Shown piece by piece: positions 2,769-23,487 of a stretch of 24,349 nt of DNA. The notes beneath the pieces are model-generated. The model saw nothing but the letters and a program-made list of their open reading frames with translations, was not told where the DNA came from and did not search any database. The DNA comes from an uncultured Phycisphaeraceae bacterium (GTDB lineage Bacteria; Planctomycetota; Phycisphaerae; Phycisphaerales; UBA1924), in contig CAYZFW010000002.1 of assembly GCA_964477615.1 (NCBI GenBank), positions 1-24,349 of the forward strand, given 5' to 3'. How positions within the stretch are numbered: position 1 is the first letter of the stretch; every line of letters starts with the position of its first letter. The translations under genes and the position numbers were made by a program.

Positions 2769-5207
2769 ATGTTCGCGGCTGTGAATCTGCGCTCACCGAG
2801 TCTGACGGTCGCTTCGGCTCTTGCGCTCATCGCGGGGCAGGGTGTGTGCTGCGCCGCAGATGCCCCGGAGTCGAACCCCGGCGCGGCGTCCATCGCGTGC
2901 TACCCGTCCGACCCGACGCCCGAGCAACTCGCGTACATCCGGCGCGTGCGGGCGCTCGCCCCGACGCAGTCGCCGATTGATCCCTCGCGGTTCATCCTCG
3001 ACACGTTCTGCTGGCAGGCGGGCGGGTCGGTGGGTGTCGGCGGCGGCGCGCTGCCGGTTGATCTCACCTACTCGTTCCCCAAGGACACGACGATCTGGGG
3101 GCTCAGCGGGATCAGCCAGCCGCTGGCGAGCGAACTGAACCAGAAGCTCATCGCGCTGTTCGGATCGGGCAATCTCGATCTCGGACGCGAGCACATCCGC
3201 CAGGCGATGGCGTCGTGGCGGCGCGCGGCGGGGGTCCGGTATCAAGAGGTCGCCGACGACGCCGCGCCGATGGACCAGCTTGAATCCCGAGTGGGAACGC
3301 GGGGCGATATCCGCATCGGCGGGAACTCACTGGGCATCCAGTTCTTCCTCGCGTACAACGCGTTCCCCTCGGCGCAGGGCGGTGGCATTGCGGGCGGCGG
3401 TGACATGTTCCTCAACACGTCGTACTTCCAGGCGCAGTGGTTCAACAACCCCGCCGACAACTTCCGCTACTTCCGGAACGTGGTGGCCCACGAGCACGGG
3501 CACGGGCTGGGGCTGATCCACACCACGCCGTGCGACAACACGAAACTGATGGAACCGTTCATCTCGCTGCTGTTCGACGGGGCGCAGATCGACGACATCC
3601 GCGCGGTGCAGCGGAACTACGGCGATCGTCTGGCCCCGAACCACACTCCCGCGCAGGCGACGGACCTCGGGGAACTCTCGCTGGTGGGATCGGGGCCGAA
3701 GTCTGTGCGTGAATCACTGCTCTCGACCAACGGCTCGACGGGGATCAACGGGACGAATCAGGACTTCTTCAAGTTCTCGCTCGCCGAGGCGAGGCAGGTC
3801 GTGCTGTCGGCCCAGCCGACGGGCGGGACGTACCCGCAGGGCTCGCAGATCGCCGAGTGCGAGGGGCTGGGGATCGCGAACGTGAACGCGTCGGCGGCGG
3901 GCGACCTCTCGCTGGAACTGCGAGATGCGTCGGGGTTCGGCGTGCTGTTCACCTCCGCCGCGGGCGGCCCGAGTGTGACGGAATCGCTCACGGCGACCCT
4001 GCAGCCAGGGACGTACTACGCACGGGTGTTCGATGTGGGGTTCAACCCCCCGGCGAACCAGGAGGTGCAGCTGTACAACCTGACGGTGCGCGTGGAGGGG
4101 GCGCTCTATCCGCCGCGGGCGATCGGCGGACTGCACAAGCGGTCGTTCGCGAACGCGAAGTGCTTCTTCATCGGGAACGTGTCGTCGTGGGTGAACGAGC
4201 CGGGGGCGACGATGGCGGCGTGGGACTGGGACCTCGACGGCGACGGGACGTTTGAGGCCACGGGAACACAGGTGTTCCGCACGTACCCCTCCAACGGCGT
4301 GATGCCCGTGACGCTGCGGGTGACGGACTCGAACGGGCTGTCGGCCACGGACACGATCAACGTCACGGTGTTCAACGCGTCGGCGTCGATCTCGGCGGTG
4401 ACGCCGGGGGTCGTGCCGCGCGGTGCGCTGACGCCCGTGACCATCCACGGGACGAACTTCAAGGGCGTGGTGAGCGCGTCGCAGTTCAGCACCTCGGGCA
4501 CGGGTGTGACGTTCACGGGCACACCGGTGGTGAACGCTCTGGGCACGCAGGTCTTTGGGCTTTCGGTGTGGGTCAGCCCCTCGGCGGCGCTCACGACCCG
4601 GACCATCAGCGTGACCAACTCTGATGGGCTGGGCGGCCTTTCTGGAAACGCGACCAGTGCACCCTTGCTGACGCTCACGACACCCTCGGCCGCGCCTGGG
4701 CCGTTCGCGCTGCTTTCGCCGGTGAACAACGCCGGGAGCGTGCCGGTGGACCCGGTGCTGTCGTGGGGCCCGGCGACTGGGGCATTCAACTACCGCCTGA
4801 CGGTGGCGCTCGACCCCGGGCTGTCGCGGGTCGTGACGCAGGAAGACATCGCGCCGCCGCTGACCTCGTTCTCGGTCCCGAGCGGGATGTTGGAAGCGGG
4901 CACGGTGTACTTCTGGAGCGTCGAGGCGCAGAACCCGGTTGGCAACACGCTGCCGGTGCCGGAGCCTTCGTTCTCGTTCACGACGCACAGCACGGTGCCG
5001 GTGTGCCAGGGCGATCTGACCGGGGATGGGCTGAGGGACGTGGCCGACCTGGTGGTGTTCCTCGGTGCCTTCGGATCGACGGTGCCCGTGGGCACGGGGG
5101 CGGATCTCAACGCCGATGGTTCGGTGAACGTGCTGGACCTGGTCCGGCTGCTCAGCGTTTTCGGGTACCCGTGCGAGGACGGGATCGGCCGGCCGGTGGC
5201 CCAATAA
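2769..5207 (+). CDS. Secreted matrixin/M10-type metzincin metalloprotease with PPC-like, PKD, Ig/TIG-like, Fn3-like and dockerin-like domains
   Basis: Zn motif HEHGHGLGLIH, Met-turn KLMEP, PKD signature WDWDLDGDGTFE...TLRVTDSNG, C-terminal double DxxxDG loops. Start moved from 2580 (collides with the ruvX start) to ATG 2769, which is followed by a signal-like stretch (MFAAVNLRSPSLTVASALALIAG). 812 aa. Confidence 0.88.
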   Translation: MFAAVNLRSPSLTVASALALIAGQGVCCAADAPESNPGAASIACYPSDPTPEQLAYIRRVRALAPTQSPIDPSRFILDTFCWQAGGSVGVGGGALPVDLTYSFPKDTTIWGLSGISQPLASELNQKLIALFGSGNLDLGREHIRQAMASWRRAAGVRYQEVADDAAPMDQLESRVGTRGDIRIGGNSLGIQFFLAYNAFPSAQGGGIAGGGDMFLNTSYFQAQWFNNPADNFRYFRNVVAHEHGHGLGLIHTTPCDNTKLMEPFISLLFDGAQIDDIRAVQRNYGDRLAPNHTPAQATDLGELSLVGSGPKSVRESLLSTNGSTGINGTNQDFFKFSLAEARQVVLSAQPTGGTYPQGSQIAECEGLGIANVNASAAGDLSLELRDASGFGVLFTSAAGGPSVTESLTATLQPGTYYARVFDVGFNPPANQEVQLYNLTVRVEGALYPPRAIGGLHKRSFANAKCFFIGNVSSWVNEPGATMAAWDWDLDGDGTFEATGTQVFRTYPSNGVMPVTLRVTDSNGLSATDTINVTVFNASASISAVTPGVVPRGALTPVTIHGTNFKGVVSASQFSTSGTGVTFTGTPVVNALGTQVFGLSVWVSPSAALTTRTISVTNSDGLGGLSGNATSAPLLTLTTPSAAPGPFALLSPVNNAGSVPVDPVLSWGPATGAFNYRLTVALDPGLSRVVTQEDIAPPLTSFSVPSGMLEAGTVYFWSVEAQNPVGNTLPVPEPSFSFTTHSTVPVCQGDLTGDGLRDVADLVVFLGAFGSTVPVGTGADLNADGSVNVLDLVRLLSVFGYPCEDGIGRPVAQ

Positions 5208-20066: not shown

Positions 20067-20073
20067 CTGAAAG

Positions 20074-20146
20074 TGGAGCTGATCGGGATCGAACCGACAA
20101 CCTCATCCATGCCATGGATGCGCTCTCCCAATTGAGCTACAGCCCC
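20074..20146 (-). tRNA. tRNA-Ala(GGC), CCA not encoded
   Basis: GGGGCTGTAGCTCAATTGGGAGAGCGCATCCATGGCATGGATGAGGTTGTCGGTTCGATCCCGATCAGCTCCA: cloverleaf, anticodon GGC, G3:U70 Ala determinant, GTTCGAT T-loop. The discriminator is followed by CTT. Confidence 0.97.
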
Positions 20147-21333: not shown

Positions 21334-21688
21334 ATGTCGGTCGGCGAGGGCGCGTGCGTCCACGGCGTAGTGTTCCATTCCGCGCGGTAATGCGCTCGCC
21401 GGGCGACCTCGGCGGTGCAGGGGCGGCGTGAGTTGGATTCTGCACTTCACCGCATGCCTGAAAAAGATCGCCGGCCGCGCGCGACGGATGAGGGCAGCGA
21501 CACGGTACCAGATCGTGTGTGCTTCCCCGTCGAGCGGGTGCTGGCGGATGGGCTGACGACACTTGGGATGCGGGGTTTGAGTCGGATGTGAGCGCGGGCA
21601 CGGCGCAACCATCTCCGATCCTCTCGTCGCTGCTCACCGCTCCCTGCTTCGGGCATGACGCAGTACCCGTCGAGAACGAATCCGATCT

Positions 21689-21779
21689 CCACCCGCGAAG
21701 CGGGTGGGTCATGTTTGCCAGCGGCGCAGCCGCTGGTACCGTGGTGTCAGACCGACCCGCCCATGAACTGGGAGGGCGA
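21689..21779 (+). repeat. Three-hairpin REP-like unit, copy 1 (upstream of tnpA)
   Basis: A: CCACCCGC-GAA-GCGGGTGG (21689-707). B: CCAGCGGC-GCA-GCCGCTGG within 21710-37. C: CCCGCCCAT-GAA-CTGGGAGGG-CGA (21756-79, two mismatches). Confidence 0.85.
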
Positions 21780-21794
21780 GATCCCATCCCAGCC

Positions 21795-22256
21795 ATGCCC
21801 TCCTCCTACACCCAGTCCTACTTCCACCTGGTCTTCGGCACGCTCCGCCGCGAGCCGCTGATCACCGACCAACTCCACGACCGTCTCTACACTTTCCTCG
21901 CGGGCATCGTGCGCGACCTCGGCGAAGGGCACTCCGGCCACCTCATCGCGGGCAATGGTCTCGCCGATCACGCACACCTCCTCGCGCGCTGCCCGCCGGA
22001 CGTCTCGCTCGCCGTGCTCGCCCGAGAGGTCAAGTCCCGCTCGTCGAAGTGGATTCACGAGACATTCCCCGAGCTCAACCACTTTGCATGGCAACGCGGA
22101 TACGGCGGCTTCACGGTCAGCCGCTCCGAAGTCAACACCGTCGAGCGGTACATCCGCAATCAAGCCGAGCACCATCGCACCATGACCTTTCAGGACGAGT
22201 TCCGGCTGATGCTCGAGAAGCACGGCGTGGACTTTGATCCGAGATACTTGGAGTAA
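21795..22256 (+). CDS. tnpA: IS200/IS605-family Y1 HUH transposase (TnpA / RAYT-like)
   Basis: YFHLVFGT, HUH motif DHAHLL, WQRGYGGFTVS, catalytic Tyr in ERYIRNQAEHH. ATG 21795; the ORF-track start 21519 runs through the hairpin repeats. 153 aa. Confidence 0.92.
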   Translation: MPSSYTQSYFHLVFGTLRREPLITDQLHDRLYTFLAGIVRDLGEGHSGHLIAGNGLADHAHLLARCPPDVSLAVLAREVKSRSSKWIHETFPELNHFAWQRGYGGFTVSRSEVNTVERYIRNQAEHHRTMTFQDEFRLMLEKHGVDFDPRYLE

Positions 22257-22275
22257 GCTCGGCCAAGTGTCAGGT

Positions 22276-22323
22276 GGAGACCGCGTCTGGTAGGGAAGCC
22301 GTCTGGTGGAGAAGCCGTCAGAT
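22276..22323 (+). repeat. Three imperfect tandem 16-mers downstream of the tnpA stop
   Basis: ggagaccgcgtctggt / agggaagccgtctggt / ggagaagccgtcagat, then ggaga. Confidence 0.7.
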
Positions 22324-22366
22324 GGAGAGATCACCGGGTGTCCGGATTCAACCGGCGCCGCGAATC

Positions 22367-22458
22367 GTGCCCGCAAAGCGGGTACCCGATGGTTGCCAGA
22401 CGCGCAGCGTCTGGTGGACACCAGTATGCACCACCCCGCCCATGAAATGGGCGGGCGA
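22367..22458 (+). repeat. Three-hairpin REP-like unit, copy 2
   Basis: A: GTGCCCGC-AAA-GCGGGTAC (22367-85). B: CCAGACGC-GCA-GCGTCTGG within 22388-415. C: CCCGCCCAT-GAA-ATGGGCGGG-CGA (22435-58). Confidence 0.9.
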
Positions 22459-22490
22459 ATCGCACCGCTTCGGCTCTCTTGAACAAGCCT

Positions 22491-22599
22491 TCGCTCGCCC
22501 ATTTCATGGGCGAGGGGCATCAGGACACCGGCGAGAACCCAATGGCCCAGTACCAGACGCTGCGCGTCTGGCAACCATCACAGGCCCGCTTCGCGGGCC
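22491..22599 (-). repeat. Three-hairpin REP-like unit, copy 3 (inverted; forms a doublet with copy 2)
   Basis: On the minus strand, A: GGCCCGC-GAA-GCGGGCC (22583-99). B: 22552-79 is the exact 28-bp reverse complement of 22388-415. C: CTCGCCCAT-GAA-ATGGGCGAG-CGA (22491-514). Confidence 0.9.
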
Positions 22600-22656
22600 G
22601 GTCACGGTGAGCTACGGACCGCGATGCGACGGCGTTGGGCTACGATGACATCGGCG

Positions 22657-23487
22657 ATGATCACACTGCGTACCCAGAAGCAACTGCGTCAGTGCCAGAG
22701 CATCGATTTCTGCTGCCTTTGCGGAAGACCGTTGGCGTCAGGCGAACCGCTGAACCGACACCACATTCCACCCGAGGCCATCTTCCGAAAAGAAGACCGA
22801 GAGCCATTGGTACTGCCGGTACACAAATCTTGTAATGACGCAGAATCGACTCGGGACGAACCGATCTCGCAACTGATTCGGGCACTTCGTGGCGAGTTTC
22901 CTGCGGACAAGAACAAGAAACTTCGGGGTGCGTCACTTCGGGCCGTTGACGGCGGCGATGTCGATGCGATGGTGTTCCCAGAGGCCAAGCGAACAATCTT
23001 TCGATGGGTCAAGTGCTTCCACGCCGCGATGTATCGGCAGTATCTCGACAACCCTCGCGGCAAGGTCTTTCTGCCCATCGTCGAAGGAACCTCGGTTGCC
23101 GGCTTCGCAACCGCTGATCCACCCCACCGTGTACGCATCGCGCTGACCGCCATCATTTCTCGTCACATGAGGCTCGAAGAATGTGACTCGATTGTGTGCA
23201 ACAAAGGAAACTGCGAGTATCACTGCATCTGGAAGACATTCTCGGGTGGCCGTTCGCTATGCATCTTCGCCCTGCGTGTCTATGACTGGGAGCGGCTGAC
23301 TGATCCTCGATTCGAACCTCACGGCTGCGTTGGTTTCTACGAATTTCCAGCGCCACACGGCGCTTCGTACTCTGAATGGGAAGAGGTTGACCCCAACTTC
23401 AACTCATTGGACCCTTTCGCCGCGCTGAATATCCAACCAGTCACACCCCCAGCATCAACCGAGCCGGGTCCTCAATCCCCTCCTTGA
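22657..23487 (+). CDS. Hypothetical protein with N-terminal HNH-like (Zn-knuckle, beta-beta-alpha-Me) nuclease signature
   Basis: FCCLCG...[11 protein letters not shown]...[13 protein letters not shown] is clearly lower than the flanks (30/60 at 22801-60 and 28/60 at 23161-220, versus 45/60 at 9061-120 or 16921-80). Start could be 22624, 22645 or 22657. Confidence 0.65.

Follow-up and report, generated by a model that had tools for sequence, protein, structure and literature searches.

The locus described here raises the question of whether a small HUH transposase gene and the hairpin repeats around it are an ordinary insertion sequence (IS) or a partnership of the kind formed by repetitive extragenic palindromes (REPs) and their enzymes. 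The gene, tnpA (21795-22256, + strand), lies in a stretch of 24,349 nt (the window; GenBank contig CAYZFW010000002.1), which is the entire contig C2 of a metagenome-assembled genome (MAG) of an uncultured Phycisphaeraceae bacterium (G000; assembly GCA_964477615.1, 3.49 Mb, 777 contigs, 81% complete). One composite three-hairpin unit precedes tnpA and two follow it, the second inverted. Known REP cases are, to our knowledge, all associated with class-2 REP-associated tyrosine transposases (RAYTs) and with single hairpins, and how REPs spread is still debated. We conclude that the locus and the units dispersed through the genome probably constitute a system like REPtrons and REPINs (REP doublets forming hairpins), in which a single-copy, vertically kept Y1 HUH enzyme would sit between copies of its cognate repeat.

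Three composite units flank tnpA

Units with hairpins in the order A-B-C had been placed at three positions around tnpA in an initial annotation of the window, and all three were located as claimed. Unit 1 (U1; 21687-21785, + strand; 105.5 bits with a covariance model built from the three window units) comprises hairpin A (21689-21707), a linker ending in ATGTTTG, hairpin B (21718-21736), a spacer, hairpin C (21756-21776) and the tail CGA, and its 3' end lies 9 nt upstream of the tnpA ATG. Unit 2 (U2; 22365-22464, + strand; 109.3 bits) comprises A (22367-22385), the linker CCGATGGTTG, B (22396-22414), C (22435-22455) and the tail CGAA. Unit 3 (U3; 22485-22602, - strand; 116.7 bits) is inverted, with C' at 22494-22514, B' at 22553-22571, A' at 22583-22599 and a B-C spacer of 37 nt. 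Together U2 and U3 form a tail-to-tail doublet (22365-22602). Folded as single-stranded DNA (ssDNA), each of the three units gave three hairpins (z -3.5 to -4.3 against dinucleotide shuffles). Read on the unit strand, the loops of A, B and C are GAA, GCA and GAA in U1 and U3; the A loop of U2 is AAA, and hairpin C of U1 carries a G.A mismatch that opens a 5-nt loop including GAA. The stem swaps reported between copies (AC/GT vs CG/CG in B, CCCG/CGGG vs CTCG/CGAG in C) were correct, and the GCGAAGC motif reported in two copies of A was confirmed in U1 and U3.

Dispersal of the unit in G000

With the same covariance model (E ≤ 0.01), 39 units were found in G000, of which 33 were full-length and strong (49-117 bits) and spread over ~30 contigs. 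By tblastn, G000 contains one copy of tnpA and a 49% identical paralogue on contig C120. The initial annotation had held that many intergenic copies away from tnpA would indicate a REP/REPIN family, and that units found only at the ends of near-identical IS copies would speak against one; the units proved to be dispersed and tnpA single-copy. Genes were called by codon usage. Almost all units are intergenic by these calls, and the few apparent overlaps are over-extended starts of open reading frames (ORFs). Seventeen of the 33 strong units lie between convergent genes, and in 27/33 the C side faces a gene end, mostly within ~130 nt. In co-directional intergenic regions the units point either way (6 vs 5). 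Flanks outside A..CGAA are unrelated between copies.

The dispersed copies in G000 are singlets. Loss of doublets during assembly was considered and dropped, because units are not enriched at contig ends (2/29 vs 1.9 expected). Rfam, at gathering and at permissive thresholds, returned chance-level matches only, with no family fitting the unit, and the literature searched has no description of this unit, the nearest hint being a remark on GTAG-23 repeats of T. roseum (PMC3733652). An existing family covering the whole A-B-C unit, which the initial annotation had allowed for, was thus not found in either source.

Architecture and covariation of the unit

The unit in G000 is ~95-118 nt long with three hairpins in fixed order, compared with the single 20-40-nt palindrome of REPs. 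The composite (~95-100 nt) consists of a small hairpin A followed by ..ACGA, a conserved unpaired foot GTTG, hairpin B (CCAG....CTGG), a variable spacer, and hairpin C, which is of the same type as A and like it is followed by ACGA. An insertion of ~18 nt in the B loop (..CGCGAGCAAAGCGAGCAA..) extends about a quarter of the G000 copies to 114-118 nt; this subfamily includes C29:1764, C760:73, C429:2089, C340:1981, C55:8329, C446:2054, C145:5900 and C420:1484.

Covariation was assessed in 31 distinct G000 copies. Stem cells were paired in 93% of cases, and double-sided compensatory changes were seen in 17 of the 25 stem pairs. The covariation score was 0.31, against 0.10 for shuffles (0/500 reached the observed value) and 0.02-0.04 for slid partners, in which 30-43% of stem cells were paired. 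This supports the earlier proposal that structure rather than sequence is under selection. Across 72 distinct aligned copies from five genomes, the G-N-A loops (GAA in A, GCA in B, GAA in C) are kept in most copies while the stems vary. G.T and A.C mispairs in the stems are equally common (32 vs 38), and the stems therefore carry no RNA signature; the comparison gives no information on which strand is active.

The sequence before hairpin B is an invariant ATGGTTG in this lineage, of which the last four bases read TTTG in U1; sister lineages have GTAG there. Among ~128 flanks from the wider enzyme clade described below, GTTG was counted 66 times and GTAG 32 times. The statement in the initial annotation that a GTAG-type foot is absent is therefore wrong for hairpin B, which has a GTTG foot here and a GTAG foot in sister lineages. 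By virtue of this 5' foot, hairpin B would count among the tagged REPs with a GT-x-G motif, and it appears to be the part of the unit that resembles a REP.

Units and enzyme in related genomes

The search was extended to 40 relatives of G000, which carry the label Phycisphaerales; they include G004 (same genus as G000), G019 (another genus) and G010 (a complete genome). Units numbered 35-39 in G000, 77 in G004 and 54 in G019, with 1-8 in five other relatives and none in 33. The three unit-rich genomes encode TnpA proteins 100%, 76% and 60% identical to the query, respectively. G010 also has a TnpA of 60% identity; the covariance model no longer recognises its diverged flanking units, which BLAST detected at tnpA and at about seven other loci, giving this genome a family of its own at about 9 loci. 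TnpA homologues within single relatives' genomes are all divergent (39-60% identical to the query).

The layout around tnpA is conserved at the orthologous locus of G004, where a unit, tnpA, and a unit with an inverted unit adjoin sucB as in the window. A dN/dS of 0.16 between the window tnpA and this orthologue (76% identity) indicates purifying selection on the single-copy enzyme. Synteny with the window extends on the sucB side only, upp lying elsewhere in G004, and G001 has neither tnpA nor units at sucB. In G019 a unit, tnpA and an inverted unit are tightly packed. Most units of G004 and G019 are in tail-to-tail doublets (at least 23 and at least 8, respectively), always with the plus unit before the minus unit, and the two halves are often of different stem subtypes. 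Doublets are the main form in G004 and G019; in G000 the dispersed form is the single unit and not the 233-bp doublet that had been suggested as a possible non-autonomous unit.

A pattern scan of public genomes, one genome per species, gave 519 TnpA relatives, of which the best 80 were taken; these were nearly all from Planctomycetota, and 77 had usable flanks. Inverted repeats of ~100 nt surround the gene in 43 of the 77 Planctomycetota loci, scoring above 99% of non-cognate pairings. The layout across the clade is a small GC hairpin, ..ACGA-xx-, the tetranucleotide foot, a hairpin of the form CC[AG][CG]..complement, then a spacer rich in pyrimidines, another small hairpin resembling the first, and ACGA. 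Hairpins A and C vary along with the enzyme lineage, and the base of B is kept across lineages. The 49% paralogue in G000 (C120:6168-6910) is accompanied by its own variant three-hairpin units, which have GGA loops and keep the A-linker-B-C-ACGA order, with one extra doublet at C7:6964-7194. With these units it appears to form another enzyme/repeat pair of G000, present in low copy.

Class of the enzyme

TnpA is a 153-aa Y1 HUH protein (Pfam Y1_Tnp, 1.6e-23) whose aligned motifs are DHAH (DHVH in relatives), AWQ, YIRNQAEHH and a conserved C-terminal tail. It scored 65.9 bits against the NCBIfam IS200/IS605 model NF033573 (cut-off 55). Among solved structures, the nearest are IS200-type TnpAs of Sulfolobus, Deinococcus and Helicobacter, and none of the structure matches listed bears a TnpA-REP or REP-nuclease name. 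There is no tnpB partner, and the downstream ORF has no Pfam or NCBIfam match. Identity with a classical (class 2) RAYT was ruled out by the profile hidden Markov model (HMM) score given in the Discussion and by the tyrosine motif, which is YIRNQ and not Y-x3-NP.

By its motifs (Y-x3-Q-x2-HH; YIxxQxEHH), TnpA is assigned to subclass 1.2 of the IS200-like class 1. Members of this subclass have been described as ~148 aa long, mostly from Cyanobacteria and Bacteroidetes, present in low copy, not IS-like and generally without terminal hairpins, with the entry 'REP: no' (Quentin, Siguier, Chandler, Fichant 2018, PMC6006769). The window protein has their DH[IV]H-like HuH motif, WQ and YIxNQxEHH, ends in a C-terminal tail of ~30 aa and is ~150 aa long; as in that subclass, its copy number is low and copies in one genome have little identity to each other. 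Unlike them, the members studied here have structured flanking repeats that are dispersed genome-wide, and they occur in Planctomycetota.

Site turnover and strand bias

Unit sites of G004 were compared with the orthologous flanks in G000. At 17 of 18 assessable sites the G000 flank has no unit, though there is room for one; the single common site is occupied by a doublet in G004 and by a singlet in G000. Intergenic DNA of the two genomes is 65-85% identical, at which presence or absence can be scored and the ends of the element are not placed to the base. At many G004 unit sites (L053-L072) the left and right flanking genes map inside different G000 contigs; G004 units may often mark places where gene order differs between the two species.

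A strand bias of solo units is a new finding. In 28/33 G000 units (24/27 contigs when the tnpA locus is excluded) and in 9 of 10 solo units in G004, the unit lies on whichever strand of the contig is C-rich; beyond 300 nt to either side of the unit the bias is still present. In G000, GC skew does not depend on gene direction (rho 0.04; mean +0.13 for genes on the G-rich strand and -0.15 for those on the C-rich strand), a behaviour like that of a replication-type asymmetry. The lagging-strand template is the known substrate of IS608 and ISDra2 (cited in PMC3333891); by analogy with these elements, the bias fits a strand-specific process coupled to replication. The orientation of tnpA itself relative to skew gave a weak result over 69 loci (25 vs 44, mean -0.01). 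As a separate observation, contig skew in G000 is strong and mosaic (median absolute value 0.07-0.08, up to 0.3), and that of G010 is equally patchy.

The 120 nt directly 3' of the unit are extremely C-rich (skew -0.35 to -0.47). After the CGAA end the sequence is rich in C and A and poor in G for ~120 nt, with 47% C and 17% G in the first 40 nt; examples are C12:6100-6225, C340:1860-1980 and C55:8200-8328. The tract could reflect a target preference, be part of the element, or be a rut-like tract.

Discussion

Co-occurrence of units and enzyme, the GC-skew strand bias of solo units and the turnover of sites between species lead us to infer that TnpA binds and cleaves the hairpins and mobilises the units by way of ssDNA. 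In the mechanism we propose, which is modelled on IS608 TnpA and E. coli TnpA-REP, the hairpins would extrude when the DNA becomes single-stranded. TnpA would recognise the hairpin shape and conserved unpaired bases in the GT[T/A]G foot, in the ACGA tails and in the GNA loops, and would cut and rejoin one strand, such that units are copied or moved to new intergenic sites. The repeat would in this way have spread through intergenic space as a non-autonomous element, either alone or as tail-to-tail doublets, a doublet corresponding to the tnpA locus minus its gene.

Several observations weigh against a REPtron/REPIN-like system. TnpA scored 25 bits against the NCBIfam model REP_Tyr_transpos (cut-off 80), and all 11 aligned homologues behave alike in failing it; moreover, subclass 1.2 has been reported without REPs (PMC6006769). 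In four relatives (G001-G003 and G013), 4-8 units are present although a close TnpA orthologue is lacking; either units can outlast the enzyme or the enzyme gene was not assembled there. The simplest analogy with REPs is that the enzyme reads the strand bearing the 5' foot. If the G-rich strand is the leading strand, the complement of the unit strand would lie on the lagging-strand template, and the strand with the 5'-GTTG foot would then be off that template, in conflict with this analogy. Skew in G010, sampled in twenty 6-kb segments, was noisy and mosaic: it changes from -0.25 to +0.23 across dnaA (3.06 Mb), a switch that fits the usual polarity rule, and the next sample is at -0.22.

The last point against such a system concerns closely related strains. 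Contigs from four other sequencing runs (four studies), 1-2.5% divergent from G000, were compared with G000 contig C29. Its five units are present wherever a contig bridges them (five in X2, four in X5, two in X6 at 3027 and 12776, and two in X8 at 1764 and 6795), and each bridged unit is kept. The joints listed in the strain contigs stem from other genomic repeat copies and none skips a unit. No empty/filled polymorphism was thus seen at the five sites in the bridging contigs, which cover some unit/run pairs only. Retention among close strains indicates that turnover is slow; activity is either low or has ceased, and the comparison does not bear on slow or past activity.

Among the alternatives, the one that survives best, though we regard it as improbable, is that the units are kept mainly for a host role in RNA or chromatin, as 3'-UTR (untranslated region) stabilisers, terminator-like barriers between convergent genes or protein-binding sites, with TnpA as a past spreader or a mere neighbour. 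The bias towards gene 3' ends and convergent regions, the orientation of the C side towards gene ends, the C-rich, G-poor tract of ~100 nt after the unit, the persistence of low unit numbers in genomes without an orthologous TnpA and the stability of sites among strains all agree with such a role, and E. coli REPs are established to have roles of this type. On the other side, unit direction is evenly split where neighbouring genes are co-directional, no T-run follows the hairpins, the equal frequency of G.T and A.C mispairs is unlike RNA structures, orientation follows GC skew and not transcription, and unit lineages vary together with TnpA lineages. A host role leaves this lineage-specific co-variation and the skew-linked orientation unexplained. 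It is compatible with TnpA-driven spread, and the position bias makes it plausible as a secondary layer at gene ends.

Slightly less probable again is an ordinary, selfish IS of the IS200 family (unit, tnpA and inverted unit, ~670-900 bp), recently active and horizontally acquired, together with derivatives of the type of miniature inverted-repeat transposable elements (MITEs). NCBIfam names the protein an IS200/IS605 transposase, the gene lies between inverted ~100-nt repeats as it would between terminal repeats, and doublets resemble internal-deletion derivatives. The presence of several TnpA homologues per genome in relatives, the restriction of synteny to the sucB side and the absence of gene and units at sucB in G001 point the same way. 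Against this, no genome examined has a second near-identical copy, intragenome homologues diverging as given above; the orthologue adjoins sucB in two species with 76% TnpA identity and purifying selection; IS200/IS605 ends are direct-orientation hairpins on one strand and not inverted 100-nt units; and unit sites are stable among strains differing by 1-2.5%. Since two similar gene copies occur in no lineage and two species have the locus in common, we consider it unlikely that the system is an ordinary IS with MITEs.

Chance hairpins or an assembly artefact, for which the ready folding of a 67% GC genome and the 777 contigs of the MAG might be cited, are refuted by 39 copies in true register scoring up to 117 bits, by covariation above shuffled and slid controls, by the recovery of units from other species assembled independently and from contigs of four further runs, and by the lack of enrichment at contig ends.

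The REPtron/REPIN-like system favoured here resembles the RAYT-REP(IN) systems of E. coli (TnpA-REP with bacterial interspersed mosaic elements, BIMEs) and Pseudomonas (RAYT with REPINs) in several respects (PMC3333891, PMC3116915, PMC2817692). A single-copy Y1 HUH gene lies between inverted cognate hairpin repeats; tens of copies of the repeat, single or as inverted doublets, are scattered outside genes; every enzyme lineage is paired with a repeat family of its own; a GT-x-G tetranucleotide stands 5' of a hairpin; and doublets are often heterodimers, as in the Y/Z BIMEs of E. coli. The REPIN feature proper, a population of inverted unit pairs with a short spacer, is represented by the window doublet and by the doublets of G004 and G019, the dispersed units of G000 being singlets. 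The differences from known REPtrons lie in enzyme class, repeat architecture and host phylum: the enzyme here is of class 1 (Y-x3-Q-x2-HH) and does not reach the RAYT HMM cut-off, three hairpins make up a ~100-nt composite repeat in place of a single hairpin of 20-40 nt, the foot is GTTG, the hosts are Planctomycetota, and solo units show a GC-skew strand bias.

With IS200/IS605 elements and their MITEs or palindrome-associated transposable elements (PATEs), such as those of IS608 and ISDra2, the locus shares its nearest solved structures and HMM type, and recognition of ssDNA hairpins and coupling to a replication strand are likely, by analogy, to be its working principles as well. It differs from them in having no multiple identical copies and no tnpB, in flanking repeats that are inverted and not direct, and in non-autonomous units that far outnumber the gene. 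Hairpin B with its 5' GT[T/A]G foot also fits the pattern of the GTAG-tagged REP superfamily (Di Nocera et al. 2013, PMC3733652). The GTAG-23 REPs of T. roseum were described there as 'inserted within small palindromes CCGSSCC(n3-4)GGSSCGG', and such short GC-rich palindromes next to a tagged REP are reminiscent of hairpins A and C. That study differs in taking the palindromes as insertion targets and not as part of one unit, and its R. baltica GTAG REPs go with class-2-type transposases.

A broader proposal, to which we give a little less than even credence, is that subclass 1.2 Y1 proteins are the dedicated enzymes of a distinct composite class of REP across Planctomycetota and perhaps beyond, in which a GT[T/A]G-footed hairpin is bracketed by two ACGA-tailed hairpins and insertion of solo units is coupled to the replication strand. 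If true, this would place a REP origin on the class-1 (IS200) side, independent of RAYTs, and would provide a direct genomic trace of strand-specific REP spread. An IS200-side subclass without an assigned role would gain its own structured repeat population, which would mean that the REP/enzyme partnership either arose more than once or predates the RAYT class. The invariant unpaired motifs and freely covarying stems offer a ready set of oligonucleotides with which to study the reading of DNA shape by Y1 enzymes, and from the strand bias of solo units one could ask, at the genome level, whether REP insertion is tied to replication. With its 519 relatives in public genomes, the clade makes this a broad question.

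Other features of the locus and genome

Three tandem 16-nt repeats, read by eye, lie between the tnpA stop codon and U2 (22269-22328, + strand). Each corresponds to the 3' arm of hairpin B and the first bases of the spacer (..GTCTGGTGGAGAAGCC..), and the repeats are probably fragments of a unit; they may be leftovers of aberrant cutting and joining, or of slippage.

A 287-aa ORF (22624-23487, + strand) begins directly after U3 and contains the motif CxxC..HHIPP..HKSCN (HNH-like). It gave zero Pfam and NCBIfam matches, its codon usage is under the coding threshold, and BLAST of its DNA against the G004 gap between sucB and the doublet found no similar DNA. A tRNA-Ala(GGC) gene (20073-20146, - strand) is located between a GGDEF gene and upp, ~1.5 kb upstream of U1.

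A further repeat, with no match in the window, is a perfect long hairpin of ~60 nt with an 18-bp stem (GGTGGGGCAGGCTTCCAG..), seen at L081:2871-2937 (G004 C47). It has 65 BLAST matches on 45 G000 contigs and appears to be a separate REP-like family.

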